Origin: Candidatus Falkowbacteria bacterium
GTDB lineage: Bacteria; Patescibacteriota; Patescibacteriia; JACRDY01
Length of the DNA: 21,024 nt
Reading direction: 5' to 3'
NCBI GenBank assembly: GCA_016218485.1
Contig: JACRDY010000068.1
Location: 1-21,024, forward strand
Part shown: one piece after another, positions 3,116-21,024 of the stretch
Layout: each line of letters opens with the position of its first letter
How positions within the stretch are numbered: the first letter of the stretch is position 1
Translations under genes and position numbers: made by a program
The notes under the pieces: generated by a model
What the model saw: only the letters and a program-made list of their open reading frames with translations
Database searches by the model: none
Told to the model about the DNA's origin: nothing

Positions 3116-3337
3116 TTTTTGAAGTTAAAAAAATCGTTGGCAGTGTGCCGGCGGTTTTTTTAACCAGAGAGATAAGAATTAAGATTAAAGATTTAAGAAT
3201 AAATACACCATTCTTAAATTTTTAATCTTATCCCTTAATTCTCCCGCTACTTGACCAATTACCAATTACCAGTAAGATAAGGGTAGGTTTGTCACTATAC
3301 CGTATAATACGGTGCACCAATAGAGGAGGAGGTCACG

Positions 3338-4612
<1,275 letters not shown>

Positions 4613-5304: not shown

Positions 5305-5325
5305 ACCATGTTTTTAATGATGAAA

Positions 5326-5448
5326 GCCGGGACGCGCTTCACCCGCCCAAATTTAGCTCTCATCATTAATGGTATCCGCGATTACCCACCATCGTGTAAT
5401 CAAAACGGACAACGTTTTTGTACCGAGCTAAATTTGGGCGGGTAAACC
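5326..5448 (-). repeat. Copy 1 of a ~125-nt terminally palindromic structured element (candidate ncRNA or MITE), immediately 5' of tRNA-Pro
   Basis: Terminal inverted repeats CACCCGCCCAAATTTAGCTC ... GAGCTAAATTTGGGCGGGTAAACC (~20 bp) enclose internal hairpins (CAAAACG-gacaa-CGTTTTG; GATTAC...GTAATC). Two further copies at 5756-5879 and 6149-6273 show the same organisation. Confidence 0.7.
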
Positions 5449-5465
5449 AACTGCGCTACGGCCCG
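5447..5465 (-). pseudogene. Partial copy of the tRNA-Pro 5' end (acceptor 5' strand through the D-loop), abutting element copy 1
   Basis: Minus-strand reading: CGGGCCGTAGCGCAGTTGG, identical to the first 19 nt of tRNA-Pro, followed directly by the element's TTTACCCGCC end. Confidence 0.5.
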
Positions 5466-5543
5466 TTAATAACAATTAACAGTTAACAATTAACCAGTAA
5501 CAAACAACCAAATATGCTAGTCAATTGTTAAGCGTTAATTTGT

Positions 5544-5640
5544 TAACTGTTAATTGGTGCCGAGGGGCAGAATTGCCCGCTCGTCTTCGCGAGCGGATCC
5601 GCTCAGGCCGAATGGCCATGAGCGGAAACTGCCGACGCTC
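5544..5640 (-). pseudogene. Partial second copy of the tRNA-Phe 3' portion with a ~50-nt structured insertion in the T-loop, and an encoded CCA
   Basis: Minus-strand reading: ...GGCGTC-GGCAG-TT[TCCGCTCATGGCCATTCGGCCTGAGCGGATCCGCTCGCGAAGACGAGCGG]GCAATT-CTGCC-CCTCGGC-A-CCA. The insert shares CCGCTCAT-GCC-TTCGG-C-T-AGCGGATC with the Gly-copy insert. Confidence 0.5.
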
Positions 5641-5662
5641 CCGCCAACTATTCCAGGCAATC

Positions 5663-5734
5663 TGCCGGGGGGCAGAATTGAACTGCCGACGCCATGCTCT
5701 TCAGGCATGCGCTCTACCACTGAGCTACCCCGGC
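5663..5734 (-). tRNA. tRNA-Phe (anticodon GAA)
   Basis: Reverse complement: GCCGGGG-TA-GCTC-AGTGGTA-GAGC-G-CATGC-CTGAAGA-GCATG-GCGTC-GGCAG-TTCAATT-CTGCC-CCCCGGC-A. No encoded CCA. It is flanked by the inverted leader/trailer GCAATCT...AGATTGC. Confidence 0.85.
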
Positions 5735-5755
5735 AGATTGCAAATTATAGTTGTA

Positions 5756-5879
5756 GGCGGGACGCTCTTCACCCGCCCAAATTTAGCTCTAGTAATTAAT
5801 GGTATCTGTGACTCTCTCACGCGCGTGTAATCCAAGCAGATAACGCTTTTGTGCCGAGCTAAATTTAGGCGGGTAAACC
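5756..5879 (-). repeat. Copy 2 of the ~125-nt element, immediately 5' of tRNA-Phe
   Basis: Same terminal inverted repeats (CACCCGCCCAAATTTAGCTC...GAGCTAAATTTAGGCGGGTAAACC). The interior is divergent, but the internal hairpin is kept by different base pairs (AAGC/GCTT versus AAAACG/CGTTTT in copy 1). Confidence 0.7.
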
Positions 5880-5918
5880 AGCCCCGAAGGGGCCCCTTTG
5901 GGGCTGAGCTACCTCGGC
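5880..5918 (-). pseudogene. GC-rich double hairpin plus a 15-nt fragment matching the 5' end of a tRNA-Phe variant
   Basis: Minus-strand reading: GCCGAGGTAGCTCAG-CCCCAAAGGGGCCCCTTCGGGGCTGG. GCCGAGG is exactly complementary to the CCTCGGC acceptor 3' strand of the partial Phe 3' copy at 5544-5640, and not to that of the intact tRNA-Phe (GCCGGGG/CCCCGGC). Confidence 0.45.
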
Positions 5919-5966
5919 TTACCCTGATATCTGAACGGAATATAGTATTAGCAAATAGACTGCATA

Positions 5967-6048
5967 GGGCGTACTTGGATTCCCCGCCTGCCAGCGCCTG
6001 CGGCGCAGCCGTTGGCGGGCAGGGAACCAAGGACCTCGTCATTATCAG
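5967..6048 (-). pseudogene. Partial second copy of the tRNA-Ile 3' portion with a 42-nt GC-rich hairpin insertion in the T-loop
   Basis: Minus-strand reading: CTGATAA-TGACG-AGGTC-CTTGG-TTC[CCTGCCCGCCAACGGCTGCGCCGCAGGCGCTGGCAGGCGGGG]AATCC-AAG-TACGCCC. The insert sits at the same T-loop position (after TTC) as in the Gly and Phe copies. Confidence 0.5.
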
Positions 6049-6066
6049 CTCCGCCCCGCACCAAAA

Positions 6067-6140
6067 TGCGCGTACTTGGATTTGAACCAAGGACCTCGTC
6101 ATTATCAGTGACGCGCTCTAACCAACTGAGCTATACGCGC
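6067..6140 (-). tRNA. tRNA-Ile (anticodon GAT)
   Basis: Reverse complement: GCGCGTA-TA-GCTC-AGTTGGTTA-GAGC-G-CGTCA-CTGATAA-TGACG-AGGTC-CTTGG-TTCAAAT-CCAAG-TACGCGC-A. No encoded CCA. Confidence 0.85.
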
Positions 6141-6148
6141 ATATTGCT

Positions 6149-6273
6149 GCGGGGTGAACGCTCTTCACCCGCCCAAATTTAGCCTTAGTAATTAAGGGTA
6201 ACCGCGATTACTCACCATCGTGTAATCTAAGCGGACAACCTTTTTGTACCGAGCTAAATTTAGGCGGGTAAAC
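6149..6273 (-). repeat. Copy 3 of the ~125-nt element, immediately 5' of tRNA-Ile
   Basis: The terminal inverted repeats and interior are highly similar to copy 1. It is followed at 6274-6313 by the same GC double hairpin and a 5' tRNA fragment GGACGTATAGCTCAG, which pairs with the TACGCCC strand of the partial Ile 3' copy. Confidence 0.7.
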
Positions 6274-6420
6274 CAGCCCCGAAGGGGCCCCTTTGGGGCT
6301 GAGCTATACGTCCGTCATCTAGAGTTTACTGCTAGGGTAGATAAAAATAACTACTCGGCAGTCTAATACAAAACGGTAAAAAAAGCAAGGTACGAGCAGG
6401 CTGATTTAGTCTTAATTTGA

Positions 6421-6463: not shown

Positions 6464-7564
6464 ATGACTCAAAAGAATAAGAAACCCACAGTCATCGTGG
6501 CCATGTCCGGCGGCGTGGATTCGTCTGTCGCGGCCGCTTTACTACAGCGGCAGGGCTATGACGTGCGCGGCGTGCATATCAAGATGTGGTCGGATCCGGA
6601 TATCCCCTGTTTGTTTACTTTTGACCGGATTGACGCCATGAAAGTAGCGATCCAGCTCGGCATTCCTTTCACCACTTGGGATCTGACGCGCGAATACCGC
6701 AGCGCGGTCGTGGACTACATGATCCGCGAGTTTAAGGCCGGTCGGACGCCCAACCCGGACGTGATGTGTAATAGCGAGATCAAGTTCGGGGTGTTTTTGG
6801 ATAAAGTTTTAAAAACGGGCGCGGAGTATTTGGCGACGGGGCATTATGTGAAAAAAGCGCAAAGCGCAAAGCGCAAAGCACAGAGCCAGTCCACGATACA
6901 AAAATTGTATATCGCGGCGGATGGGAATAAGGATCAGAGCTATTTTCTCTGGCGGCTGAATCAGCAGCAGCTGCGGCATAGCCTGTTTCCCCTGGGTGGT
7001 CTGACTAAGCCGCAGGTGCGAGTCCTCGCCAAACAGTTTAAGCTGCCTACCGCTGACAAGCCGGACTCGCAGGGTATCTGCTTCATCGGCGAGATTAACC
7101 TCAAGGATTTCCTGGAACACTACATCCCCCGCCGTCCGGGCACAATCGTGACCACGGACGGCCGCGTACTCGGCCATCATGAGGGTCTCCCCTTCTATAC
7201 CATTGGTCAGCGTGAGGGGCTGGGTCTGGGCGGTGGCATCCCCTACTATGTCGTTGCCAAAAATTTTAAAACCAATCAGCTGATTGTTGGCAGCCGGGGC
7301 GCGGCTGAACTGTTTCTGCCGAGTTTGCGGTTCACCGCCGCCAATTGGCTACTTGGCAGCGAGCCGAAACTGCCTCTGATCTGCCTGGCGCGTATCCGCT
7401 ACCGTCAGCCGCTGGAGCGTTGTCGGGTCAAACGCATCAGCGGTCGCGGCATTCGGGCGATCTATCAAGCGAAATTTACCGAGCCGCAGCGGGCCATTAC
7501 TCCCGGTCAGTCCATTGTGTTGTACAGGAGCGAGGAGATGATCGGGGGCGGGATTATTATTTAG
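6464..7564 (+). CDS. mnmA: tRNA-specific 2-thiouridylase (tRNA (5-methylaminomethyl-2-thiouridylate)-methyltransferase)
   Basis: A 366-aa ORF. PP-loop VAMSGGVDSSV near the N-terminus. Collinear with MnmA throughout (DQSYFL, GICFIGE, ITPGQS..GGGII C-terminus). It contains an ~8-codon in-frame insertion encoded by GCGCAAAGCGCAAAGCGCAAAGCACAGAGC at ~6856-6890. Confidence 0.85.
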   Translation: MTQKNKKPTVIVAMSGGVDSSVAAALLQRQGYDVRGVHIKMWSDPDIPCLFTFDRIDAMKVAIQLGIPFTTWDLTREYRSAVVDYMIREFKAGRTPNPDVMCNSEIKFGVFLDKVLKTGAEYLATGHYVKKAQSAKRKAQSQSTIQKLYIAADGNKDQSYFLWRLNQQQLRHSLFPLGGLTKPQVRVLAKQFKLPTADKPDSQGICFIGEINLKDFLEHYIPRRPGTIVTTDGRVLGHHEGLPFYTIGQREGLGLGGGIPYYVVAKNFKTNQLIVGSRGAAELFLPSLRFTAANWLLGSEPKLPLICLARIRYRQPLERCRVKRISGRGIRAIYQAKFTEPQRAITPGQSIVLYRSEEMIGGGIII

Positions 7565-7700
7565 TCCTTAGTCCATAGTCCCTAGTCCTTAGTCCATAGT
7601 CCTTATTCCATAGTCCTTAGCGTATAGTTTTAGCGTGAAAGCCTCCACTAAGTACTAGGGACTAAGGACTATGGACTATGTATAGGACTATGTACTATTT
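7564..7700. repeat. Palindromic spacer built from TAGTCC/TAGGAC-type 6-9-nt words
   Basis: gtccttagtccatagtccctagtccttagtccatagtcc...actagggactaaggactatggactatgtataggactatg. The two arms are reverse complements of each other. Confidence 0.55.
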
Positions 7701-7920: not shown

Positions 7921-8523
7921 ATGGCTAAAAATATGCAAAAATCACGGATATTGCAAAAACTACGTAAATATTGGAGAAAATTAGGCGCTTTTTTGGTGCA
8001 CATGCATGTGCGTCGGGTTGAATTGGCTGTTTTTGCTGTAATTTTATTTGAATTTTCTTTTCCTCAAGTATCATTAGCTCAAGAATTGCAGGCTCCGGCC
8101 AGCTATCAGACCGAGAGCGTGATGTATGAAACAGTGATTCGGGATGCCGCTCCGGTTATCAGCGACGCGGCTGTATTGGCTGATTTTAATAATAGTCTGC
8201 CAATGGCGGCTGATCGTCAGCCGACCCGTACCATCTGGGTGACGGTAACGGCCTACTCCAGCACTCCGGATCAGACTGACGACAGCCCGTGTATTACGGC
8301 TAACGGGTTTGATGTCTGTGAACACGGGCAGGAGGACGTGATCGCGGCCAATTTTTTGCCCTTTGGTACCACGGTCAAAATGCCGGAGTATTTCGGCGAC
8401 ACAGTCTTTACTGTGCAGGATCGGATGAACGCGCGCTACTACAGCCGCGTTGATGTCTGGATGCAGAGCCGGGAGGCGGCTAAACAATTCGGCGTGCGGA
8501 CGCTTAAGGTTGAGGTTTATTAG
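7921..8523 (+). CDS. Secreted 3D-domain protein (MltA-like fold, cell-wall binding/remodelling; related to YocH/YuiC C-terminal domains)
   Basis: An N-terminal hydrophobic signal/anchor (LAVFAVILFEFSFPQVSLA). The C-terminal region has VTVTAYSSTPDQTDDSPCITANG ... VIAANFLPFGT ... FTVQDRMN...VDVWM, with three spaced Asp residues. The true start may be the internal ATG at 7933. Confidence 0.6.
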   Translation: MAKNMQKSRILQKLRKYWRKLGAFLVHMHVRRVELAVFAVILFEFSFPQVSLAQELQAPASYQTESVMYETVIRDAAPVISDAAVLADFNNSLPMAADRQPTRTIWVTVTAYSSTPDQTDDSPCITANGFDVCEHGQEDVIAANFLPFGTTVKMPEYFGDTVFTVQDRMNARYYSRVDVWMQSREAAKQFGVRTLKVEVY

Positions 8524-8587
8524 CTACAAATAGCGAATAGCACATAGTCAATAGTACATAGCGCTTGAGAAGGGCGTTTTTTTATAT

Positions 8588-8700
8588 GGCTACATTATCA
8601 CATTGCTACATTGCCAAATTGCTAAATTGTCACACTGTTGTGTGGGTTATTTAGCAATTTGGCAATGTAACAGTTTAACAATTTAACAATGTAGCAATTT
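8588..8700. repeat. Large palindrome of ATTGC/ACATTG-type words
   Basis: A perfect 17-bp inverted repeat, ttgccaaattgctaaat / atttagcaatttggcaa, sits inside longer symmetric arms (ctacattatcacattgctacattgcc ... ggcaatgtaacagtttaacaatttaacaatgtagc). Confidence 0.55.
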
Positions 8701-9684: not shown

Positions 9685-10698
9685 ATGATGCGATTGATTG
9701 AGTCTCTTGATGCGAAAGTCCAAAAGTGGTTCGGCATTCAGCTGATCAAGCTGTGGGACGCGAAAAGCCAAGGCAATCCCCCAGTCATTGTTCGGCTGGA
9801 TGAAAAGCACGAGATCGTTTTCCGATCCGTCTTCGGCAGTGACGACCACACCTTCAGTGGTTACCGGATAGAAGAACCCACCTATTGCTGGTGGGTCCCG
9901 GTCTTCCGTGACGAATACGTCGCCACGATTTTTACCGGGGAGTACTCCGCACCGTTCAATACGCAAGGATTTGAGGCCAACTCCGGCGTGGAAAATATAA
10001 ATGACCTGGAAAAGGAATTCAAGGGCATGATGGGCGCTGCCGCGTGGGAGAAGGCTCGTAAGGAACTGGAAGAGGTGATACAGCGTCGTCTGAAAGGCGG
10101 CGCGCCGAAAGTGACGATATACGTCTCCGGTACGTTGCAGCTCGATGTTGAAGGCATCATCAACGCCAGCGCGAAATACGCCACTCGCTTGTTCAAGAGC
10201 GGCAACGCGGATCAGATCATCAACGGCATGATGGAGCTCGCGCTCGCCCATGTCTTCGGCAGCATGATGCTGGAATCAGCCCTGATCCTCGCGGGTCATC
10301 GGCGGGAAAAGACGATCAAGCAGCTGATGAACTTGATGAATTTCGGCTGCCTGGAAGTGGACGAAGGTGGCGAGCCGATCGAGGCGACGCGGGTCACGGG
10401 TATCAAAGGTCTGCGGTACTACGGTCTCCGTCTGGTGCAGTTCGGTATCAAGCGGATTGTGCCGCCGGAGGAGATTGAGGAAGCGATCCGTCAGGAAGAA
10501 AGCGCCGAACGAGAGCGCGTGGCCGATAAAGCCAAGGCTGATGTCGCGGCAATGATTCACGATCTTCCAGCGGCGTTGGCGTTTACGGTTATGCACCTGA
10601 CCGATGCCCAAGTCAAAGGCCCGGGTCTCGAAATTTCAGTCAGTAAGAATAAGAAGGGAAAGTCCGGCGGTGCAGCAGCGAGTGACTCCACCGATTAA
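9685..10698 (+). CDS. Hypothetical soluble protein, 337 aa, no recognisable domain
   Basis: Long ORF with a GGAGGTG RBS 6 nt upstream and coding-like composition. No motif recognised by eye. Confidence 0.6.
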   Translation: MMRLIESLDAKVQKWFGIQLIKLWDAKSQGNPPVIVRLDEKHEIVFRSVFGSDDHTFSGYRIEEPTYCWWVPVFRDEYVATIFTGEYSAPFNTQGFEANSGVENINDLEKEFKGMMGAAAWEKARKELEEVIQRRLKGGAPKVTIYVSGTLQLDVEGIINASAKYATRLFKSGNADQIINGMMELALAHVFGSMMLESALILAGHRREKTIKQLMNLMNFGCLEVDEGGEPIEATRVTGIKGLRYYGLRLVQFGIKRIVPPEEIEEAIRQEESAERERVADKAKADVAAMIHDLPAALAFTVMHLTDAQVKGPGLEISVSKNKKGKSGGAAASDSTD

Positions 10699-10754
10699 CA
10701 CCAATTCGGGTCGCGGGCTTAAACCCCCGCGACCCGCTCAATCAGGAGTAGTCA

Positions 10755-11753
10755 ATGGAAACAGGAAAAGTCCCATATAGTGAGCCAGGTGAGGTAGATG
10801 CGAAGAAGAAGAAAGATCAATCAGGAGGGAGCATCTACGGCTGGACTATCGCCGGTTTTGCCCTGCTGGCCCTGGTGGTTGTGCTGGTGATCGTGGTAGG
10901 TATCGTGGCGGGGATCGTCGGGGCAATTTCCTGGCTAGCTTTAGGGCTCCTCAGCGTACATATCTCCGCGATTGTACTGCTGGTGGGCTGGCTGTACCGC
11001 CAAAAGGCATTTAGCGCCGCATGGGCAGTGATCTGGGCCGCCATTCTGTTTTTCGGCATCCCAATATGGCTCTTGAAGTATAGTGCCTGGTCGCCTGAGG
11101 CGGCCAAGATGATCAGCGTGTACATTGAGACCGAGGCGGACAAGCAGCGTGAGCTGCCAAACCCGCCGAGTGAGACCTATGAGGAACCAACTTTTCAGGA
11201 CTTCGTCCGTGAGGCCGGAGATCTAGGAGATGGTGAGACCACCACGTTTGAGGAGCCGGCATTTCCGATTGACACGTCAATCCATTGGAAGACCCAGCGA
11301 GGCGTGTGGTGCGTGTACTTTGATCCGAAGACGGATCCGTACCCGTGCCGCGGCAATACCGGCCTGCCCGGTCATGGCGACTTTCGTCTGAAGAACGACG
11401 GGCCGCACTTCACCATCAAGGCCAAGGGGCCGGTGGAGGGGCTGATATTCAGCTACACGGCCAAGACCGGGACTCACCCGGTGCGCAAAGACGACGCGAC
11501 CATCGCGGCCGAGCGCAGGGCCTATGAAGAGAAGGCGGCCGCGATCAAGGACAAGGCCGCGGTTCAAAAAAAGCCGCCGGACGAGTGGTACCAGAATCCA
11601 ATAACATGGATCGTTGTGGCGGTGCTTGCGCTGGTGATCGGCCTGATCATCAGCCGGGTTCGCGCTGGCGGTCGGGTCAAGGCCGCTCAACGTGCGGCAG
11701 ACCAGCAGGCCGTATTGGCACAGTTGGCAAAGGGCGAGGTCACGGTGGAGTGA
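10755..11753 (+). CDS. Hypothetical integral membrane protein (about 4 N-terminal TM helices, a central soluble domain, a C-terminal TM helix), probably co-transcribed with the 9685 gene
   Basis: A 332-aa ORF with an AGGAG RBS. A stable hairpin cgggtcgcgggcttaaacccccgcgacccg with no T-run sits in the 56-nt gap after the upstream gene. Confidence 0.6.
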   Translation: METGKVPYSEPGEVDAKKKKDQSGGSIYGWTIAGFALLALVVVLVIVVGIVAGIVGAISWLALGLLSVHISAIVLLVGWLYRQKAFSAAWAVIWAAILFFGIPIWLLKYSAWSPEAAKMISVYIETEADKQRELPNPPSETYEEPTFQDFVREAGDLGDGETTTFEEPAFPIDTSIHWKTQRGVWCVYFDPKTDPYPCRGNTGLPGHGDFRLKNDGPHFTIKAKGPVEGLIFSYTAKTGTHPVRKDDATIAAERRAYEEKAAAIKDKAAVQKKPPDEWYQNPITWIVVAVLALVIGLIISRVRAGGRVKAAQRAADQQAVLAQLAKGEVTVE

Positions 11754-12132: not shown

Positions 12133-12597
12133 ATGGGCAACACTAATCAACAATTTGAATTATTAGCCATTAAACAAGATTTGGCGGAATTTCGTCAAGA
12201 AAATAACGAACTGTTTTTGGCTATTAAGCAAGATCTAGATCGGATGGCCACCAAGGACGATCTCCAAGGCGTGAAGGACGATCTCCAAGGCGTGAAGGAC
12301 GATCTCCAAGGCGTGAAGGACGATCTCCAAGGCGTGAAGAAGGACTTACATAGGTTCGCCACCAAAGACGACCTATTAGCATTCGCCACCAAAGACGACA
12401 TGGAACATTTTCGGGATGAATTAAAAGAAGAAATTCATCAGACATTTGATGTGCTAATTACCGGGCAGGATAAAATAGTGAAGATACTGATGGATCAGAA
12501 AGCGGAAAACGCGGCCAATCAATCAGCGCACGGACGTTTCCAGACCACGCTGGATACCCACGAACGGAGAATAGGTGTTTTGGAAAATCCTGTTTAG
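12133..12597 (+). CDS. Coiled-coil repeat protein with KDDLQGV heptad repeats
   Basis: A 154-aa ORF with ATKDDLQGV-(KDDLQGV)x3-KKDLHRFATKDDLLAFATKDDMEHF. The heptad periodicity suggests a coiled coil. Confidence 0.6.
   Translation: MGNTNQQFELLAIKQDLAEFRQENNELFLAIKQDLDRMATKDDLQGVKDDLQGVKDDLQGVKDDLQGVKKDLHRFATKDDLLAFATKDDMEHFRDELKEEIHQTFDVLITGQDKIVKILMDQKAENAANQSAHGRFQTTLDTHERRIGVLENPV
12253..12336 (+). repeat. Perfect 4 x 21-nt tandem repeat (aaggacgatctccaaggcgtg) inside the 12133 CDS
   Basis: Four identical consecutive units encoding KDDLQGV. Degenerate units follow (aagaaggacttacat..., accaaagacgacctatta...). Confidence 0.9.
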
Positions 12598-12750: not shown

Positions 12751-15549
12751 ATGGCTAAGAAAAAGTTAGTAATTATAGATGGCAACGCCCTGATTCACCG
12801 GGCGTTCCATGCATTGCCGCCGACGCTGCGGACCAAGGACGGCACGGTCGTCAACGCCGTATACGGTTTTGCTTTGATTCTTCTCAAAATTTATAAAGAG
12901 CTGAAGCCTGATTATCTCGCCTTGACGTTGGACCGGGCCGCGCCGACATTTCGCCATATTGAGTACACCGAGTACAAGGCGCATCGGATCAAGCAGCCCG
13001 ATGAGCTGTACGCGCAAATTCCACTGGTTAGAGACTTGGCGGGCGCGTTTAATATCCCGACGTACGAGCTGGACGGCTACGAGGCGGATGACCTGATTGG
13101 CACGATTACCGCCAAGACCGACGGCGGTGTCAGGAATATCATTGTTACCGGCGACATGGACACGCTCCAGCTGGTGGATAACGACACTGAAGTCTTCACC
13201 ATGAAGAAAGGGGTCAATGACACGGTCACCTATGATAGTGCCGCCGTGGTCGAGCGCTATGGCCTGCGGCCAGACCAGATGATTGATTACAAAGCGCTGC
13301 GCGGGGACGCTTCAGACAATATCCCGGGCGTGCGGGGAATCGGCGAGAAAACCGCGGTGGAGCTGCTGCAACAGTTTGGGACTTTGGAAAATGTATATAA
13401 AGAAATAAAGAAATTGAGAAATAAAGAAATTACCAGTGTCCGGCCAAGAGTGGCAGAGTTGCTGTTGGAGCATGAGCAGGACGCGCAGATGTCACAGCAT
13501 CTGGCGACGATTGTCCGGGACGCGCCAATTAAGTTTATGATAGAGGACGCGGTAGTGGCCGGGTATGACCAGCAGGCGGTTTTTGACTTATTCCAAAAAC
13601 TGGAATTCAAGTCGCTCTTGAGCAAGATCCCGGGCATGGAAGGCCGGCAGCGTCCCGAGAGTAAAGAGGGGCAGCGGGGGTTGTTTGATAATTCAAAATC
13701 ACAAATTCAAAATAATAAATCCGAAATAAATTCTAAATTCCAAATCCGAAACGGCTACCACTTGCTGGACGATGAGAAGAGTTTTAAAAAGTTTATCGTG
13801 GAACTCAAGAAGCAAAAGTTGATTGTTATTGACACCGAGACCACGGGGTTGGATACGATTACGGATACATTATTGGGGATTGGGTTTTGTTGGAAAGAGG
13901 GGGAAGGATATTATTTAGAAATAAAGAAATTAAGAAATAAAGAAATTGAAAAAGCCATCAGCAGGATTTTATCTGATGAGAAAGTAAAAAAAGTCGGGCA
14001 CAATTTGAAGTTTGATATTGAGGTATTGACGAACGCCGGGTTTACCGTCCGGGGTGTGTATTTTGACACCATGCTCGCCTCCTACCTCCTGGATCCGGGC
14101 TCTCGGGCGCATGACCTGGATACGTTGGCCTTCACCGAGCTTGGCTACCAGATGACGCCGATTGAGCAGCTGATTGGCTTGGGCAAGAGTCAAATTACTT
14201 TAGCCGACGTGGCGGTGGAAGTCGTGGCCGACTACTGCTGCGAGGACGTGGATTATACATTTCGGTTGTATCAAAAGTTAAGTAACGCCATTGAGCAGAG
14301 AAACAGTTTTGGCTTGATGGAAACCATAGAAATGCCGCTCGTTGCCGTGTTAGCCAAAATGGAACTCTTGGGCGTGAAGATTGACATGAAGTTCCTGGGC
14401 CAGCTGGATCGTGAGATTGAGACCACGCGGCAGAAACTAGACAAGAAAATTTTTGCCATGGCAGGCAAAGAATTCAATCTTGATTCACCACTGCAGCTCA
14501 AAGAAATCCTGTTTGAGACGCTGGAAATCCCGACCGAGGGGCTGAAGCGCGGTAAAACCGGTTTCTCCACGGCCGCGGCTGAATTGGACAAAATGCGCGG
14601 GCTGCACCCGATTATTGACTTGATTTCCGAGCACCGGGAGCTGGCCAAACTGCAGTCCACTTACACCCAGGCACTGCCAAAATTGGTTAATAAAAAAACC
14701 GGCCGGGTGCACACCAGCTTTAATCAGACGGTGGCGGCTACTGGTCGGCTGTCTTCGTCAGACCCAAATCTCCAGAACATTCCCATTCGGACGTCATTAG
14801 GCCGCGAGGTGCGCAAGGCCTTCATCGCCGAAAAAGGCTGCCAAATACTGAAAGCCGACTACTCGCAGATTGAGCTGCGGATCGTGGCTAGTCTGGCGCA
14901 AGACAAAGAGATGTTGGCGATTTTCAAGCGCGGGGAAGATATTCATGCCGCTACAGCGGCAGCGATTCACGGCGTGCCCCTGGACAGTGTGACTAAGGAA
15001 ATGCGCTACAGCGCTAAAGAGGTCAACTTCGGCGTGCTCTACGGCATGGGCGCGTACGGCCTGTCGTGGCGCACCGGCATCAGCATGGCTGAGGCCAAAA
15101 ATTTTATTGATAAATATTTTAAGACCTTCTCTGGCGTGAAAAAGTTCGTGGATAGTACGATCAAGTTCGCCCGGCGGGACGGCTACGTGGAGACGCTGTT
15201 TGGCCGCCGCCGCTATCTGCCGGAGATTAATTCAGGCATGGCGCAAGTCAAAAACGCGGCCGAGCGCATGGCCATCAACGCGCCAATTCAGGGCACGGCC
15301 GCGGACTTGATTAAGCTGGCCATGATCGCGCTGGACACAAAGTTAGCGGCTGAATTTACAACAGAAGAAGTAAAGATGATCCTGCAGGTGCATGATGAAT
15401 TGGTGTTTGAGGTAAAGAGCGGTTTAGTAAAAACCGTCGCGCCACTGGTGAAGGATGTGATGGAGAACGTGTACCAGCTGCGCGTGCCGATTGTGGTGGA
15501 CGTGGAGGCGGGGGAGAGCTGGGGGGAGACGGGGGAGGTTAGTTTGTAA
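12751..15549 (+). CDS. polA: DNA polymerase I (5'-3' exonuclease, 3'-5' exonuclease and polymerase domains)
   Basis: Start chosen at MAKKKLVIIDGNALIHRAFHALPP (ATG 12751). The ORF-track start at 12685 lies inside the upstream hairpin. 5'-nuclease motifs are present (GDASDNIPGV.GIGEKTA), as are the 3'-5' exo region (VIDTETTGLD ... YLLDP) and the Pol A family motifs (RRxxKxxNFGxxYG; VHDELVFE). Confidence 0.9.
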   Translation: MAKKKLVIIDGNALIHRAFHALPPTLRTKDGTVVNAVYGFALILLKIYKELKPDYLALTLDRAAPTFRHIEYTEYKAHRIKQPDELYAQIPLVRDLAGAFNIPTYELDGYEADDLIGTITAKTDGGVRNIIVTGDMDTLQLVDNDTEVFTMKKGVNDTVTYDSAAVVERYGLRPDQMIDYKALRGDASDNIPGVRGIGEKTAVELLQQFGTLENVYKEIKKLRNKEITSVRPRVAELLLEHEQDAQMSQHLATIVRDAPIKFMIEDAVVAGYDQQAVFDLFQKLEFKSLLSKIPGMEGRQRPESKEGQRGLFDNSKSQIQNNKSEINSKFQIRNGYHLLDDEKSFKKFIVELKKQKLIVIDTETTGLDTITDTLLGIGFCWKEGEGYYLEIKKLRNKEIEKAISRILSDEKVKKVGHNLKFDIEVLTNAGFTVRGVYFDTMLASYLLDPGSRAHDLDTLAFTELGYQMTPIEQLIGLGKSQITLADVAVEVVADYCCEDVDYTFRLYQKLSNAIEQRNSFGLMETIEMPLVAVLAKMELLGVKIDMKFLGQLDREIETTRQKLDKKIFAMAGKEFNLDSPLQLKEILFETLEIPTEGLKRGKTGFSTAAAELDKMRGLHPIIDLISEHRELAKLQSTYTQALPKLVNKKTGRVHTSFNQTVAATGRLSSSDPNLQNIPIRTSLGREVRKAFIAEKGCQILKADYSQIELRIVASLAQDKEMLAIFKRGEDIHAATAAAIHGVPLDSVTKEMRYSAKEVNFGVLYGMGAYGLSWRTGISMAEAKNFIDKYFKTFSGVKKFVDSTIKFARRDGYVETLFGRRRYLPEINSGMAQVKNAAERMAINAPIQGTAADLIKLAMIALDTKLAAEFTTEEVKMILQVHDELVFEVKSGLVKTVAPLVKDVMENVYQLRVPIVVDVEAGESWGETGEVSL

Positions 15550-15655
15550 GTTCATAAGTTCATTAGTTGGTAAGTTTATTAGTTTATTAGTTGGAAAGTT
15601 TAAAAGTTAACCCCGTCGGATCGCTCTGGCGGGGTCTTGCTGTTCGTGCGGGGGT

Positions 15656-15769
15656 TCATGGCAGGACGCCCAGGACGTTGCAGATGGCGTTGGCCACGAA
15701 TGTGAAGACGATCGCGCCGATGGCGGTTTGCCACGCCATCACGAACATGGATTGCGTGAGATGATGCAT
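15656..15769 (-). CDS. Possible small hydrophobic peptide (37 aa), immediately downstream of the 15779 lipoprotein gene
   Basis: Minus-strand ATG at 15769: MHHLTQSMFVMAWQTAIGAIVFTFVANAICNVLGVLP-stop. It is followed by the hairpin CCCCGCCAGAGCGATCCGACGGGG and a T-rich tract. No clear RBS. It is below the ORF-track length cutoff. Confidence 0.25.
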   Translation of the reverse strand: MHHLTQSMFVMAWQTAIGAIVFTFVANAICNVLGVLP

Positions 15770-15778
15770 GGGTTGCCC

Positions 15779-16192
15779 TTACTCGCAGACGCGGTCGCGT
15801 GCCTTGATGGCCTCGGCCAGTTTGGCTTCCGTGAGGAGACGCTGCTTGTCCAGGCGCGTGGCCTCGCTGTAGAGCCGCTGCCACTCCAGCTCGATGGCGG
15901 GGTAGTTGGCGTTGTATCGCGACGAGGTGATGTCCTTGGCGACTTGGTAGTCGGCCAATTTGAGGTCCGCCGCTTTGGCGGAATCCTTGGCTTTGTCAGT
16001 GAGGTCGTCCAGGTCGCCCTGGAGTTTGTCGGCCTGCTTGTCGGCCGCGGTGCAGGCGGCCTTGGTGTTCGCGACCGACTCTTTTCCGATCATGTTGTCC
16101 ATGGCCACAGCCTGCTGGTTGGTCGCGGCGCAGCCGTTGACGACGATTCCCAGGCAGCACATCAGAACGAACAGAACGAGCGCGCGTTTCAT
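15779..16192 (-). CDS. Small lipoprotein, paralog A (signal peptide, lipobox VNGC, coiled-coil body, C-terminal Cys)
   Basis: MKRALVLFVLMCCLGIVVNGCAATNQQA.... GGAGGAGG RBS. A conserved 5'UTR hairpin CGTCCAATCCCGGACG sits directly upstream of the RBS. Confidence 0.7.
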   Translation of the reverse strand: MKRALVLFVLMCCLGIVVNGCAATNQQAVAMDNMIGKESVANTKAACTAADKQADKLQGDLDDLTDKAKDSAKAADLKLADYQVAKDITSSRYNANYPAIELEWQRLYSEATRLDKQRLLTEAKLAEAIKARDRVCE

Positions 16193-16379
16193 CGGTTTCT
16201 TCCTCCTCCGTCCGGGATTGGACGGTTATGTTTGCGATTGTGTATCTTATGACATTTTCGTCGGGCTGTCAATTATGGTTGAGATAAAAATAATGTCTGG
16301 AAAATAGGGCTTTTAGAAATGGTTGAGCCCCGCCGGAACGATCCGATGGGGCTCTGTTGCGCGCTGATTCGCGATGGAG

Positions 16380-16688
16380 TCATTTCTGACTCCGTTCGCA
16401 GTAGGTATTGCGCATGGCTTGCGCGATTTCCAGGTTGAGGTGGAGCCGGTCTGACTGTTGTGCGAGCTCGACCGCAGCCGGACCAGACTTGGTCGAGCGT
16501 AGGCGCTGCTCAGTCACCGCGATCTCGTGGCTGATGTTAGCGATCGACTGCTCGGCCTCGGCGCACTTTGCCGGGTCGGCTACGTCCTGCATCCCCAGCA
16601 GATGCGGGATTGTCAGGGCGTTGGGGTTGGTGGCCGCGCAGGCCACCGTGAGGCATAGTACGGTGACGGTCAGGATGGCCTTAATCAC
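16380..16688 (-). CDS. Small lipoprotein, paralog B, with a GTG start
   Basis: The ORF-track 179-aa ORF is an over-extension. AAAGGAGGACGACC-GTG gives M-IKAILTVTVLCLTVACAATNPNA... (lipobox VAC), about 102 aa. Its start overlaps the stop of the upstream paralog by 8 nt. Body and C-terminal Cys are homologous to paralogs A and C. Confidence 0.6.
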   Translation of the reverse strand: MIKAILTVTVLCLTVACAATNPNALTIPHLLGMQDVADPAKCAEAEQSIANISHEIAVTEQRLRSTKSGPAAVELAQQSDRLHLNLEIAQAMRNTYCERSQK

Positions 16689-17109
16689 GGTCGTCCTCCT
16701 TTGACGGGCAGTAGTATGTGCGCCGTCGGGTGGCTTCAGTGAGAGCTTTGCTCGTGTTTTGTTGATCGACCGCCAGTGAGTTGATGGCGGTCTCGAGCCG
16801 AGTCCACTGGGCTGAGAGAGCGGCGTTTTCCTCCGTATCATCCTCGCCCCGCAGGGTTTTCTGGAGGCTGACTCGGAAGTAGCCCTTGATCTCGGCTTGC
16901 GTCTTTTTGATCGCCGCATCGAGCTTCTCGAGCGTGCTTGTCAGCGCGCTGACGTCCTGGCGCGCTTTGGCGCACTCGGCCTCCCTGTCGGCGACCCACT
17001 CATGGCCGAGGAGCATATCCAGCTCGGCGGCGTTCTGGTTCTTGGCCGCGCAGCCACTGGCGAGGCACGCCAGCACCAGCAGTGCCAGAACGAATGATGT
17101 CTGTTTCAT
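16681..17109 (-). CDS. Small lipoprotein, paralog C
   Basis: MKQTSFVLALLVLACLASGCAAKNQNA.... GGAGGA RBS. The same conserved upstream hairpin as paralog A (CGTCCAATCCCGGACG-A-GGAGGA). Confidence 0.7.
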   Translation of the reverse strand: MKQTSFVLALLVLACLASGCAAKNQNAAELDMLLGHEWVADREAECAKARQDVSALTSTLEKLDAAIKKTQAEIKGYFRVSLQKTLRGEDDTEENAALSAQWTRLETAINSLAVDQQNTSKALTEATRRRTYYCPSKEDDRD

Positions 17110-17436
17110 TGCTTGTATTCCTCCTCGTCCGGGATTGGACGATTGTATTGGCGATTTTTGACTTTACCTTATTTCCACCTCCCTGTCAATGGCATTAGAC
17201 TAAAAAAATACGGCAAGCTAATGGGGCGGCTCACCGTGGTTTCCTGGAAAGGAATGGAGGGGGTGTTTTGAGGTATGGTGCTGTGGCAGCGGTCTCTGCC
17301 GGGGCGGCTTGCAGCTCATCTTCGGAAATATTGCGATGAGCGCCGCCGATCTCTGCCTGTTGGTCTGGCGGCAGATTTGGCGGGGTAGCAGTGAGGATGG
17401 TGTACACATGGCCAGTGCCATTGAGCCGACTGCTGA

Positions 17437-18030
17437 TCACTCTGGCCGGCCGTCCTTGCCACAGGACCGGGCTCCCGTTGGGGAATTTCGGTGCTGCATT
17501 TTCTTCATTCTGCTCTTCCTCCTGGTGATGGGCGTAGTGTACCGGATTATTTTTTTTCGCCAAGACTGTTGGTAAAAGGTAAGCCCGTCCCCGAACGCGG
17601 GAGGGCGGGCCAAATGAGCTTGCTGGCAGAAGCGGCGGCGCCAGCTTTTGATCTGTTCTATTTGAACACTCACATCGCGATACTTCCCTCGGGTCTGGCG
17701 CTGGATCGCCGACATCGACAGCAGGACTCTGTAGTCCCGTTCGGTCATTGTCTCCGGCAAGAATGGCAGGACGATGAATGCTCCACCAGACTGTTCCAGC
17801 TCGTCCAGTACGTTCTGGCCGTAGTAGTGCCGGATGGCCGCTCGGAAGACCATGTCTTGGGTGACAAGATCGCTCAAGAGCTGCTCCTGTAGGACCTCGC
17901 GGGCAATCTGTGCCAGTTCGAGGTCGTCGCAGGTTTGGCTCCCGTGTTCTATCTCAATCAGGGCGGCGAGTTGGCCATTGGCGGTGCAGCCGATGGAGAC
18001 TGCGATCATTAAAAAAAGAGCGCGTTTCAT
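17437..18030 (-). CDS. Lipoprotein, unrelated to the A/B/C paralogs; its 3' end is uncertain
   Basis: MKRALFLMIAVSIGCTANGQ (lipobox IGC) with an AAGGAGAAGG RBS. The last ~60 codons are basic and low-complexity, and they overlap an alternative 110-aa ORF (17231-17563) in another frame. Possible frameshift or misassembly. Confidence 0.5.
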   Translation of the reverse strand: MKRALFLMIAVSIGCTANGQLAALIEIEHGSQTCDDLELAQIAREVLQEQLLSDLVTQDMVFRAAIRHYYGQNVLDELEQSGGAFIVLPFLPETMTERDYRVLLSMSAIQRQTRGKYRDVSVQIEQIKSWRRRFCQQAHLARPPAFGDGLTFYQQSWRKKIIRYTTPITRRKSRMKKMQHRNSPTGARSCGKDGRPE

Positions 18031-18096
18031 TGCCTTCTCCTTGAGCGTGAAAGGGTTATGTTCTTTGTACCATACTAGGGGAAAAGGTCAAGATTA

Positions 18097-18167
18097 GACA
18101 CAGATTACACAGATAAACACAGATGGCACAGATCCGTGTGATCTGTGATTATCTGTGTAATCTGTGT
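18097..18167. repeat. Near-perfect ~70-bp palindrome of CACAGAT-type words, abutting the stop codon of the 18168 gene
   Basis: agacacagattacacagataaacacagatggcacagatc|cgtgtgatctgtgattatctgtgtaatctgtgtct. A second copy, 68/71 identical, is at 20861-20931. Confidence 0.8.
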
Positions 18168-19796
18168 CTAATAGATTTCCTTCTGGTAACACTCCTCACA
18201 GTACACCCGTTCCGGCCGCTCCGGCGCGTACGTCGTCTCAAATTCATTGGTGCAGCCCGCGTTCATGCAGGCGCGGTGGTACAATGTGCGCGGGTTGCGT
18301 TGCTGGAGTCGCGCCAAATGGCGACAGTCAAAGCACTGGCGGGCGATTGGCAGGCCGTGGCTGCGGTAGAATTTCAATTCCTGAGGAATAATTTTGTAGT
18401 CTTTTTTGCAAGTAGTGCAGGCCAGGATTTCGTTGAGAATGGCGTCTGTCACTTGGGTAATGTCAGCTGGTATGTCCGTCAGTGTTTCTCGGCCAAAGGT
18501 GCCCGGCAGCTCATTCTGCCAGAACCAGCCTTTACTCTGGACCTCATCTTTGGTCAGGGGAAAGTACTCCCGCGCGATGGTTTCGTTATAGCAGAACGGG
18601 GACAGGCGGATCGGGAAAAATTCGCCGTACTGGTCAGCTCGCTTCATCTCCTCAATAATCTTTTCTTTCAGTTGCTTATATTCGGTTTCGGAATATTTTT
18701 TGTTCAAAATTTGGTAGGAGCCGTGTTTGAGTCCGGTGCAGCCGAATAAATTTTGACTATAGAAACACTGCCACGAGTAGCTCGTGAATGAGCAGTCCCA
18801 GCAGGCCACCGTCGCAATTTGATATTTACTGTTGACGATGCTGATACAGTTGTAGCTCATTTCGGCTTTTGGCGAATAATTAATATCACTGACCGCTGAC
18901 GCGCCTCGGGGCAGGTTCCAGACGTAGAAGCAGTCTTCCAACTCTTGTGATTCAAAGCAGTGCGCGGCGTTGCGACAGTTATAGAGGTAGTCGCCGGTTG
19001 AGTTCTCGCAGTGGCGGATGCGCGCATATGGCCGCGGCACGGTCAGGCTGAATTGGTAGAATGTTTGATAAAATTTTTCCGGATTAGCTTTGGCTTCCGC
19101 TAACACTTTCGCGCATTCTTCCTTAGTCGCCGGTTTATTGAAAATATAATTTTCTTTGTGGCGCAGGCCGACGCAGCCAATGCAATTCTGGCAGCTGATG
19201 CAATCATAGCAAAAGGCCAGTTCAGATGAATTTTCGCAGTCATTACAATAAATGCCGGAGAAAAGATTTTGGCAGTGGACGCACTGGTAGCAGTTTTGCA
19301 GATCAAAGCCTTGCGCGCAGTCCATGGAGTCAAACGAGTTATTAACAAAATAGGAATAGTAAATATTCTCCCCGGTAACGCCGGAGATGCACATATAGGA
19401 ATCTTTGTAGTAGACCGAGTGCGGGCAGTAGTCGCTGTTTTCGCCGTGCGAGATGATCAGCGCCAGGTGCGGAGTTTTCAGTAGCAGCTCTTTGAATTGT
19501 TCCAGAAATGGTTTAGCTGGATCATAGTCCAGCGCTGGCGCTTGCCACCTGTCGCTCCACCAGCACTCCGGGCAGTACTGGAGGTAGGGTTTGTCTTTGG
19601 CGTAAAAAGAGACAATAGCTTTTTTGCAGAGATCACATTGGCGAGTATAGAGCATTCGTTCATTACGCCAGGCACAGCGAGATCGCTGCCGGCAGTCCGG
19701 GCAGCTTTTTGGCTCGGGCAGATTCAGTTTCACGAAGAAGTCTTTCTCGGCGCTCGTCAGGTCAAATTGTGCGTTGCAGTGTTGGCAGGTGGTCAT
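18168..19796 (-). CDS. Cysteine-rich multi-zinc-ribbon protein, 542 aa with roughly 60 Cys, and homologous N- and C-terminal double-CxxC modules
   Basis: N-terminus C5xxC8...FxxLNLPEPKSC32PDC35RQRSRCAWRNERMLYTRQC54DLC57...YC75PEC78WW. C-terminus CTTCKKDYKIIPQELKFYRSHGLPIARQCFDCRHLARLQQRNPRTLYHRACMNAGC...YCEECY. Both share the skeleton CxxC-F-LP-CxxCR-R-RN-R-LY-R-C-C-YC-EC. The centre has ~20-aa repeats of the form YNC-x3-C-x2-S-x2-L-x2-C. Confidence 0.7.
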   Translation of the reverse strand: MTTCQHCNAQFDLTSAEKDFFVKLNLPEPKSCPDCRQRSRCAWRNERMLYTRQCDLCKKAIVSFYAKDKPYLQYCPECWWSDRWQAPALDYDPAKPFLEQFKELLLKTPHLALIISHGENSDYCPHSVYYKDSYMCISGVTGENIYYSYFVNNSFDSMDCAQGFDLQNCYQCVHCQNLFSGIYCNDCENSSELAFCYDCISCQNCIGCVGLRHKENYIFNKPATKEECAKVLAEAKANPEKFYQTFYQFSLTVPRPYARIRHCENSTGDYLYNCRNAAHCFESQELEDCFYVWNLPRGASAVSDINYSPKAEMSYNCISIVNSKYQIATVACWDCSFTSYSWQCFYSQNLFGCTGLKHGSYQILNKKYSETEYKQLKEKIIEEMKRADQYGEFFPIRLSPFCYNETIAREYFPLTKDEVQSKGWFWQNELPGTFGRETLTDIPADITQVTDAILNEILACTTCKKDYKIIPQELKFYRSHGLPIARQCFDCRHLARLQQRNPRTLYHRACMNAGCTNEFETTYAPERPERVYCEECYQKEIY

Positions 19797-20111: not shown

Positions 20112-20861
20112 ATGTCCACCAAAAATATTCTAGAAGACTTGGGTCTAACCAAAAGCAAGGCTGATGTGTACTTGGCGGCGTTAGCCGTTGGCAGCGGCTC
20201 GGCCCAGGAGATCGCCAATCGGGCGGGTTTACCGCGGACTACTACTCATGAAATTCTGCAGACGCTCGTCGGCATGAGTCTGATTGGTTTCGTGACTAAA
20301 GGCCGGACGCGGATCTACAGCGCCGAGCCGCCGGAGAAGCTCAAAATTTTACTCAAAGAAAAAGAGGCCAGGCTCGAAAAGGCTTTGCCAGAATTGTCGG
20401 CTCTCTTCAACACCAGCGGCATTCGGCCGCGGGTGCGGTTTTACGAAGGTGAGGATGGTATTAAAACAGTGTTTGAAGACACGCTGACCGTCAGCAACAA
20501 GCTGTTGCGCAGTATTCTTTCCATGAAAGACCTGTATGAAATGCCGGGCAAGGATTACGTCAACGCCTACACGCGCCGGCGAATTGCGGCTGGAATAAAA
20601 CTGCGCGTGGTGCGTTCAGAGGGTAAAGAAGTGGAGAAAGTTTGGCCGGCGAGCACTCGAGACAGCCGCGATCTGCATTACGCGCCGGATGATATGTTTT
20701 TCCCGATGACGGTGTATATTTACGACAACAAGCTCGGGCTCATCAGCAGCAAAAAAGAAAACTTCGGCATGATTATTGAGTCGCCGGATCTGTATCAGAC
20801 CATGAAGAATATGTTTGAGGTGATGTGGCAGGTGACGCGGGTGATGAAACCGGTGGATTAG
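20112..20861 (+). CDS. TrmB-family transcriptional regulator (N-terminal winged HTH plus C-terminal effector domain)
   Basis: A 249-aa ORF with the N-terminus LGLTKSKADVYLAALAVGSGSAQEIANRAGLPRTTTHEILQTLVGMSLI, which matches the TrmB HTH pattern (LGLTxxEAxVYLxLLxxGxxTAxEIAxxSGVPRTKVYxVLxxL). Confidence 0.65.
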   Translation: MSTKNILEDLGLTKSKADVYLAALAVGSGSAQEIANRAGLPRTTTHEILQTLVGMSLIGFVTKGRTRIYSAEPPEKLKILLKEKEARLEKALPELSALFNTSGIRPRVRFYEGEDGIKTVFEDTLTVSNKLLRSILSMKDLYEMPGKDYVNAYTRRRIAAGIKLRVVRSEGKEVEKVWPASTRDSRDLHYAPDDMFFPMTVYIYDNKLGLISSKKENFGMIIESPDLYQTMKNMFEVMWQVTRVMKPVD

Positions 20862-20931
20862 ACACAGATTACACAGATAATCACAGATCCGTGTGATCTG
20901 TGATTATCTGTGTAATCTGTATCTAATAGAT
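20861..20931. repeat. Second copy of the CACAGAT-word palindrome
   Basis: agacacagattacacagataatcacagatc|cgtgtgatctgtgattatctgtgtaatctgtatct. It overlaps the TrmB stop codon on one side and abuts the stop of the partial paralog on the other. Confidence 0.8.
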
Positions 20932-21024
20932 TTCCTTCTGGTAACACTCCTCACAGTACACCCGTTCCGGCCGCTCCGGCGCGTACGTGGTCTCAAATTC
21001 ATTGGTGCAGCCTGCGTTCTTGCA
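20923..21024 (-). CDS. 3' end of a second paralog of the cysteine-rich multi-zinc-ribbon protein; it continues beyond the window
   Basis: Positions 20923-21024 are ~96% identical at the nucleotide level to 18168-18262 (same ...CEECYQKEIY-stop), with a few substitutions. Confidence 0.7.
   Translation of the reverse strand, partial: CKNAGCTNEFETTYAPERPERVYCEECYQKEIY

Follow-up and report, generated by a model that had tools for sequence, protein, structure and literature searches.

What is encoded by a row of small lipoprotein-type genes convergent with polA in an uncultured bacterium, and why do two of them carry the same stem-loop hard against the ribosome binding site? The genes lie in contig JACRDY010000068.1, analyzed here over its complete length of 21,024 nucleotides (nt; "the window" below), from a metagenome-assembled genome (MAG) of Candidatus Falkowbacteria, an uncultured groundwater-type bacterium of the candidate phyla radiation (CPR, or Patescibacteria). 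Almost nothing is known experimentally about the CPR envelope; the cells are uncultured, tiny, and probably host-attached. The genes A, B, C, and D (locus tags HY933_04685 to _04700) and a possible small peptide, pep37, are all on the minus strand, downstream of the plus-strand polA (Table 1). By sequence, A, B, and C belong to a very rare, undescribed, lineage-restricted family, and their mature products are predicted to be antiparallel alpha-helical hairpins. The overall picture favored here, which is given about an even chance of being right, is one of membrane-tethered helical rods, disulfide-clamped, with expression set by a stem-loop in the mRNA leader; the architecture stands on far firmer ground than the function.

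Sequence comparison shows A, B, and C to be true paralogs, with 28–44% amino acid identity and BLASTP E values of 2e-8 (A–C), 1e-7 (B–C), and 4e-6 (A–B); the 44% similarity of B and C is over the N-terminal tether alone. An earlier note on this DNA had described a co-oriented cluster of small lipoprotein-type genes, three of them paralogous, and had placed the GTG start of B across the stop codon of C; both descriptions hold, the overlap being 8 nt, with a GGAGGA 6 nt upstream of the B start carried by the C-terminal codons (KEDD) of C. The GenBank models for B and C are shorter, at 70 and 131 amino acids, with both signal peptides cut off. The longer starts are backed by GGAGGA spacing and by the paralog alignment, and for B also by a 102-amino acid gene call in a Logan assembly, and the two truncated models are corrected accordingly. 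An assembly artefact or collapsed repeat, a possibility raised in the same note, is ruled out: the paralogs have only 44–50% nucleotide identity to each other, and the independent Logan assembly of SRR12113407 is identical to the contig over 15292–16716.

All four genes, A to D, encode signal peptides that end in a Cys. The three paralogs share a lipobox Cys followed by Ala-Ala-x-Asn, a second Cys 25–26 residues further on (about 25 in the earlier note), and another Cys 2–9 residues before the C-terminus. By a PROSITE PS51257-style pattern, B (LTVAC), C (LASGC), and D (VSIGC) have acceptable lipoboxes, while A (VVNGC) fails only by an Asn at -2, with its Cys at the homologous position; of the lipobox previously assigned to all three paralogs, the invariant Cys-A-A-x-N holds throughout, and the pattern before the Cys is matched by B and C and narrowly missed by A. 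The n-region has Lys or Arg at positions 2–3 in A, C, and D, and Lys3 as its sole basic residue in B, and the h-region before the Cys has a maximum 10-residue hydropathy of 2.7–3.4 in all four. Proteins of this kind would sit on the outer face of the cytoplasmic membrane, lipid-anchored via the lipobox Cys. No Lgt or LspA gene was found among the open reading frames (ORFs) of this one 21-kb contig of the MAG.

An AlphaFold2 model of A, built from a four-sequence alignment, has a disordered tether, a helix at residues 37–88, a loop at 89–96, and a second helix at 97–136, with a predicted local distance difference test (pLDDT) score of 78.7 for the whole model and of more than 90 in the helices. 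The body is thus predicted to be a helical hairpin, not the plain coiled coil first proposed, although the C-terminal Cys noted with it is indeed there. In such a hairpin Cys47, at the start of helix 1, and Cys136, closing helix 2, would face each other across the open end next to the membrane, and the two are likely to form an intramolecular disulfide clamp there; disulfides, within or between molecules, had already been suggested for these proteins, and the conserved Cys residues make them plausible. The hairpin geometry is supported by two further features, the first being that the B hairpin is about 33 residues shorter than those of the other paralogs, by a deletion centered on the hairpin tip. 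The second is that helix propensity is lowest close to midway between the two Cys (Fisher-combined P=0.004, helix-propensity test on eight proteins); Gly69-Pro70 of B is exactly at its Cys–Cys midpoint (69.5), and the AlphaFold loop center of A is at 92.5 vs. a midpoint of 91.5. From helix length, the hairpin would be roughly 7–8 nm long in A and C and shorter in B. There are no CxxC motifs in the family proteins.

Conservation is concentrated in the tether and clamp, while helix surfaces and the distal tip vary freely at the sequence level. The four-sequence alignment has 13 invariant columns: seven are within A residues 21–50 and three within 128–136, with none in 51–127. The tether of about 25 residues (C-A-A-x-N ... 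L-L-G-x-E-x-V-A-D), the most conserved part, probably docks to a membrane partner; the disulfide at the base would lock the rod, leaving the distal surface free to vary.

The second conserved element is in the leaders of A and C. A 16-mer, CGTCCAATCCCGGACG, is found exactly twice in the window, on the minus strand at 16209–16224 and 17126–17141, directly abutting GGAGGA in A and stopping 1 nt short of it in C. This is the hairpin that the earlier note had placed immediately 5' of the GGAGGA, and its position is borne out. A chance motif, which that note had also considered, is ruled out by the two paralogous positions vs. 0.13 expected matches with up to 3 mismatches. GGAGGA can be taken as a genuine Shine-Dalgarno (SD) sequence in this MAG because the 16S rRNA ends in GATCACCTCCTT (2155–2166), with the anti-SD CCUCC present. 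The closing pair of the stem changes from C-G in A to U-A in C, a single compensatory change (RNAalifold). Nucleotide identity between A and C is about 80% in the leader (16/16 in the stem-loop, with identical SDs), falling to 65% over the signal-peptide codons and to 43% over those of the mature protein. Because the stem-loop is flanked on either side by mismatches a few bases apart, purifying selection on the leader is indicated, not a recent gene-conversion tract, and the sequences point to a stem-loop kept by selection. Of 13 further gene starts examined in the window, none has a hairpin against its SD. The hairpin of B, 3 nt ahead of the SD and within the C coding sequence, is a different structure, not homologous to those of A and C and not significant (z = -1.7). 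Rfam 15 gave no covariance-model match at either stem-loop, even with E values as high as 10 allowed.

Both predicted folds leave the SD free of pairing, with at most the closing pair of the stem taking its first G. This rules out an SD-occlusion or RNA-thermometer model, and the translational control proposed earlier is unlikely in the simple form of occlusion by the hairpin. The stem-loop would most plausibly act in the mRNA by leaving the SD single-stranded and shielded from upstream pairing; it may also delay degradation from the 5' end toward the 3' end, or offer its invariant loop AAUCCC to a binding factor.

The same 16-mer could instead act in the DNA, as a CGTCC-N6-GGACG palindromic operator at about +13 to +30 where a dimeric repressor, as a roadblock, would co-regulate A and C. 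It is a perfect 5-6-5 palindrome at an equal distance from both promoters, its spacer is as invariant as its arms, more than an RNA stem with a purely structural role would require, and the flanking change from C..G to T..A leaves the dyad intact along with the RNA pairing. A TrmB-type helix-turn-helix (HTH) regulator is encoded 3 kb from the cluster. Set against this are the lack of a third copy in the window at up to 3 mismatches, for example at the regulator's promoter or at D, the asymmetry of the spacer AATCCC itself, and the SD-abutting position, more typical of an mRNA element. To our knowledge the 16-mer matches no known operator, and a role in the DNA is considered rather unlikely.

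The stem-loops belong to units with a common plan. From the sequence, three transcription units appear to be present: D (possibly with a further gene), C–B, and A–pep37. The predicted promoters of A and C align with each other, and the leaders counted from their -10 boxes are about 45 nt each. The hairpin between polA and pep37 has an 11-bp stem followed by a T-run (terminator scan); the one after B has a fold z-score of -3.1 but a weak U-tract. The 24-mer CCCCGTCGGATCGCTCTGGCGGGG (15611–15634) in the first recurs in the second at 16328–16351 with 3 mismatches, where 0 matches are expected, and because these terminator hairpins are 21/24 identical the C–B and A–pep37 units look like ancient copies of a single unit. 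Each has retained a promoter close to consensus, the ~45-nt leader, a strong SD, and a terminator hairpin related to that of the other. The lipoprotein cluster also has the highest GC content at third codon positions (GC3) in the window, and with the promoters and SDs this suggests that its proteins are probably abundant. A and C would then be expressed together at a high level, and B would follow C through translational coupling.

Homologs were sought by word-indexed searches of 5.8 billion proteins and a full HMMER scan of 1.84 billion representatives. The sole family member outside the window, with E=7.8e-11 among the 1.84 billion representative proteins, is P0006, a 149-amino acid protein from JGI metagenome 3300075153 with three Cys matching those of A, B, and C. 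Its JGI name, "CwlO-like peptidoglycan hydrolase," is probably coiled-coil noise, its Pfam matches being sub-threshold and coiled-coil. Searches of Pfam, NCBIfam, PHROGs, PADLOC, and PDB sequences with the family likewise gave only sub-threshold coiled-coil noise, and a profile search of 81 loci turned up no further members.

Syntenic loci were then located via polA. The two with the closest polA, L002 (63% PolA identity) and L003 (66%), have, respectively, two tandem ORFs (9934–10870, minus strand) and one ORF (3523–3963, minus strand) convergent with it. These are unannotated and have their own TTGACA promoters; the records are labeled "uncultured Gammaproteobacteria," probably wrongly. Each product has an N-terminal hydrophobic anchor, transmembrane-like and without a convincing lipobox, a Cys in a C[AQ]E[AL]E[AQ] motif near in sequence to CAEAEQ of B, a midpoint break, and a Cys near the C-terminus. 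Six-frame translation of 1.13 Mb of loci gave no further instance of the motif, though the pattern was defined post hoc and the test is thus not independent. When all seven proteins were aligned with MAFFT without constraints, the two Cys were the sole invariant columns besides Met1. The link of these ORFs to the family, drawn from their sequences, is positional and architectural; homology is not proven. More distant relatives (L004 and L005) have other secreted proteins at the polA slot. Fast-evolving proteins of this kind would escape sequence searches, yet can be detected by position and architecture.

The pattern of variation raises the question of whether these could be a variable surface lipoprotein family, or a host-contact (episymbiosis) interface, with diversified exposed domains, as the earlier note suggested. 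CPR bacteria are thought to live attached to hosts. The fall in conservation from leader to signal peptide to mature codons would fit, as would tandem copies with freely varying hairpin bodies and tips (no invariant column in A 51–127) and evolution fast enough to leave relatives barely detectable. No machinery of variation was found, however: there are no homopolymer or tandem-repeat tracts in the promoters, their spacers, or the genes, and no recombinase or invertible element or segment. There are only three copies, the one other assembly is identical, and the relatives hold one or two copies at a housekeeping locus. A variable surface system is thus distinctly unlikely, and an adhesion or episymbiosis role is pure speculation.

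The invariant Cys pair suggests another function, in extracytoplasmic thiol-redox or envelope-stress responses, with the pair as a redox switch or disulfide-relay client, or with the hairpin as a chaperone or sensor like Spy or CpxP. Apart from the two Cys being the sole invariant residues across all candidate relatives, there is a hint of thiol chemistry, a weak one from a single case, in the 3.6-kb contig of P0006, where the neighboring gene is divergently transcribed and encodes a DsbD_2/CcdA-type membrane protein (PF13386). Neither in the window nor in L003 is there an adjacent thiol-redox gene, and the thioredoxin of L002 is about 4 kb distant. With no CxxC, and no similarity to the CpxP, Spy, or Zra families in Pfam or NCBIfam, such a role is very unlikely.

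CPR cells are generally regarded as being without an outer membrane. That the cluster is a phage-derived, spanin-like module, with C and its relatives as Rz-type proteins and the overlapping lipoprotein B as partner, is extremely improbable: C does match PHROG 739 ("Rz-like spanin," E=7e-4) and P0006 two Rz-like PHROGs (E=0.02), the B start overlaps the C end, and the layout parallels that of Rz (PMC6139136), but the matches are weak, cover the anchor and first helix only, and come amid dozens of coiled-coil noise matches, while neither A nor B has one, B is not a Pro-rich o-spanin but is paralogous to C, the flanks are polA and housekeeping genes with no adjacent holin, endolysin, or phage gene, and viral contigs hold no relatives. 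The cluster has the top GC3 of the window, but there are no mobile-element, recombinase, or phage genes on the contig to suggest a horizontal or phage origin.

Several observations weigh against the favored picture of clamped, membrane-tethered rods with a leader stem-loop. For the proteins, homology of D and the L002 and L003 ORFs to the family is not statistically established (hhalign probability at most 4%), the Cys-midpoint test on the four outsiders alone gives P=0.058, and both A and P0006 (YMTGC, with Tyr at -4) narrowly miss the strict lipobox pattern. For the stem-loop, the folding energy is unexceptional compared to shuffles (z = -1.2 to -1.6), and the covariation consists of one pair in two sequences and would be expected equally of a palindromic DNA site bound by a protein. 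It starts about 12 nt from the predicted transcription start and so would not be a classical 5'-terminal stabilizer; those of the ompA type, and in B. subtilis, have a stem-loop within a few nt of the transcript 5' end. None is found upstream of the L002 and L003 genes, nor elsewhere beyond chance among GTDB representatives, JGI metagenomes, and viral contigs. The 22-nt pattern of stem-loop plus SD has 0 matches in the GTDB representative genomes, a collection that excludes the window's own contig. In the JGI metagenomes it has three unrelated matches, two in unrelated high-GC sequence and the third upstream of an apparent IS21-type transposase, identified by eye from the translation; 13 matches to the 16-mer in viral contigs are in unrelated contexts and were judged chance. 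The promoters, transcription starts, lipidation, and disulfide are all predictions, as are the action of the stem-loop in the RNA and a structural or "stalk" role in the envelope.

A more ambitious version of the same picture would make these proteins a cell-surface "stalk" system of a Falkowbacteria-related clade at the polA slot, anchored by a transmembrane helix or, in this genome, by lipid, with the tether docked to a membrane partner and variable tips contacting wall, S-layer, or host. The AAUCCC stem-loop would be a private RNA element, read by a specific factor, through which the expanded copies are expressed in concert. This is given only a slender chance.

Table 1. Positions of genes and predicted expression signals in and around the lipoprotein cluster, numbered along the window.
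Feature	Position	Strand	Description
pep37	15656–15769	-	putative coding; 37-codon hydrophobic ORF MHHLTQSMFVMAWQTAIGAIVFTFVANAICNVLGVLP, downstream of A, before terminator
Paralog A	15779–16192	-	137 amino acids, HY933_04685; signal peptide, VVNG/C, 26-residue conserved tether, Cys47, Cys136
Paralog B	16380–16688	-	102 amino acids, GTG start; tether and Cys pair C42, C97
Paralog C	16681–17109	-	142 amino acids; LASG/C lipobox, Cys46, Cys134
D	17437–18030	-	197-amino acid ORF, HY933_04700; VSIG/C lipobox, Cys34, Cys135
A promoter	16244–16272	-	predicted sigma-70; TTGACA, 17-nt spacer, TAAGAT; 10/12 matches
C promoter	17161–17189	-	predicted sigma-70; TTGACA, 17-nt spacer, TAAAGT
A leader stem-loop	16208–16225	-	6-bp stem CCGUCC/GGACGG, loop AAUCCC
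C leader stem-loop	17125–17142	-	6-bp stem UCGUCC/GGACGA, loop AAUCCC
A Shine-Dalgarno	16202–16209	-	GGAGGAGG; read from sequence and anti-SD CCUCC in 16S rRNA
C Shine-Dalgarno	17119–17124	-	GGAGGA; read from sequence and 16S rRNA 3' end
GC-rich hairpin	15610–15635		terminator common to convergent polA (+) and A–pep37 (-); copy 1 of 24-nt element
Hairpin after B	16325–16354	-	putative C–B terminator; copy 2 (inverted) of 24-nt element
Stem-loop, then U7	17202–17235	-	likely D transcript terminator, just upstream of C promoter
Stretch of ambiguous coding content	17231–17625	-	62-codon tail of D, overlapping 110-codon ORF, strong GGAGGAAG and ATG at ~17510

The remaining genes of the cluster are less clear. 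D appears from its sequence to be an orphan lipoprotein, with no homologs found in the search. It had been described as unrelated to the others, and a place as fourth paralog has no sequence support (hhalign probability 2.6%), although its layout of anchor, Cys, turn, and Cys resembles that of the family; a single-sequence AlphaFold model is uninformative (pLDDT 38.8). The last 60 or so codons of its ORF pass through a GC-rich stem-loop and a strong SD with ATG, and the coding status of this tail is doubtful. The overlapping 110-codon ORF (17231–17563) is in a frame other than that of D, and its product contains PKFPNGSPVLWQGRPARV..GHVYTIL. The whole stretch (17231–17625) has a GC3 of 0.57–0.65 vs. 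0.71–0.86 in the lipoprotein genes and no family matches in Pfam, NCBIfam, or PHROGs, and appears to be transcribed because it is located before the terminator; it may represent a frameshift, an assembly error, or an unannotated small gene. The GC3 of pep37 (0.82) is like that of A (0.86), with all other genes of the window at 0.43–0.71; it is absent from the protein collections searched and has no family match.

The neighbors of the cluster are polA, the TrmB-like regulator, and, directly upstream of D, a very Cys-rich 542-amino acid protein (18168–19796, minus strand) with many CxxC pairs, which has no Pfam family and a weak match to an uncharacterized PHROG (E=2.7e-5). The 3' end of its gene is included, along with a palindromic element, in a 143-nt direct repeat, 97% identical, at 18127–18269 and 20882–21024. 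The contig terminates within the second copy, which suggests either a second paralog or a repeat-induced assembly break. Intergenic repeats with a 7–9-nt period form long near-perfect palindromes (e.g., ATTAGACACAGATTACACAGAT.../...ATCTGTGTAATCTGTGTCTAAT) in many places: palindromic or periodic repeats are found at 18093–18172, 20857–20927, 7562–7680, 8583–8698, 3167–3243, and 15539–15610, with a tandem repeat of 8-nt period in place of a palindrome just after polA. They have the appearance of a family of gene-end hairpins, built from repeats, that extends across the genome, and L002 has a similar ATGCATT x3.

Elsewhere on the contig are the 3' part of a 16S rRNA gene, five tRNA genes, purD, mnmA, and a gene for an SPFH protein. 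The 16S rRNA gene (1–2166) runs off the contig start and is broken near rRNA position ~1400 by an insertion of about 1.1 kb, with a LAGLIDADG endonuclease ORF (1400–2005) and an Rfam "group-II-D1D4-1" match (1370–1483). Three of the tRNA genes (Pro, Phe, Ile) are each accompanied by one of three units of about 400–430 nt, 68–91% identical, at 5316–6306; the conserved flanks contain inverted repeats, so that the structure around the tRNA genes is itself repeated. The polA gene has two in-frame AT-rich inserts of about 36 nt each (13380–13439 and 13904–13963), 500 nt apart and encoding ...EIKKLRNKEI...; low-complexity insertion of this type is unusual for a housekeeping enzyme. An ORF at 12133–12597 (154 amino acids, no family) has five tandem 21-nt repeats (12232–12357), three of them identical, encoding KDDLQGV heptads. 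A 200-amino acid protein (7921–8523, plus strand), without a Pfam match, has a C-terminal domain matching phage L-alanyl-D-glutamate peptidase PHROGs (E=5e-11), and is possibly a cell-wall hydrolase in a non-phage context.

Among known systems, those closest in shape are generic two-helix hairpins. Foldseek comparison of the hairpin with the PDB returned generic alpha-hairpins alone (HlyD, EmrA, the LSD1 tower, PI3K iSH2), with E of at least 0.2. The best structural matches are the HlyD and EmrA alpha-hairpins (template modeling score 0.65–0.70, query-normalized), but at 9–14% identity, and their lipoyl and beta-barrel domains and efflux context are absent here. The CHCH or twin-Cx9C proteins of the mitochondrial intermembrane space are disulfide-stapled helix-turn-helix hairpins in an oxidizing compartment. 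The proteins here would likewise be hairpins in an extracytoplasmic compartment with opposed Cys on two helices, but with one Cys pair at the open end instead of two, longer helices, a lipid anchor, and no sequence relationship. The Vlp and Vsp proteins of Mycoplasma are multigene surface lipoprotein families with conserved 5' regions. The resemblance is in the tandem, co-oriented genes and in a leader and signal peptide far more conserved than the mature domain; the differences are the three copies only and the lack of any phase-variation mechanism or internal repeats in what was found here.

In Rz i-spanins an N-terminal membrane anchor is followed by two linker-joined helices, with a disulfide-forming Cys near the C-terminus (PMC6139136). 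The family is predicted to have the same order of anchor, helix 1, loop, helix 2, and near-C-terminal Cys. It differs in having a lipobox anchor in the window proteins where that of Rz is transmembrane (the anchors of the L002 and L003 ORFs are transmembrane-like), in a geometry that suggests an intramolecular clamp and not the intermolecular disulfides of Rz, and in its chromosomal housekeeping context, with no lysis genes and no o-spanin partner.

A further comparison is with Braun's lipoprotein, Lpp (PF04728), and its paralogs (YqhH). The proteins here would likewise be small, all-helical, probably abundant lipoproteins with a lipobox and with a strong promoter and SD, and Lpp paralogs are in tandem in some genomes. 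The resemblance is not one of sequence: the Pfam LPP match is for C only, at 15.6 vs. a 29.1-bit cut-off, with none for A or B, and the NCBIfam YqhH match has E=0.71. Lpp is a parallel trimer, where the predicted structure here is an intramolecular antiparallel hairpin with a Cys clamp; the C-terminal Lys by which Lpp is attached to peptidoglycan is not conserved (...VCE in A, ...RSQK in B, ...DDRD in C, ...LCK in P0006); and the Falkowbacteria host is probably without an outer membrane. By analogy, one could imagine an Lpp-like role as an envelope spacer or "ruler." On present evidence the cluster is best regarded as an orphan variant of the small helical envelope lipoproteins, not a new kind of system, and as a small, probably highly expressed family with a predicted disulfide clamp and a leader stem-loop it offers a tractable handle on the CPR envelope.

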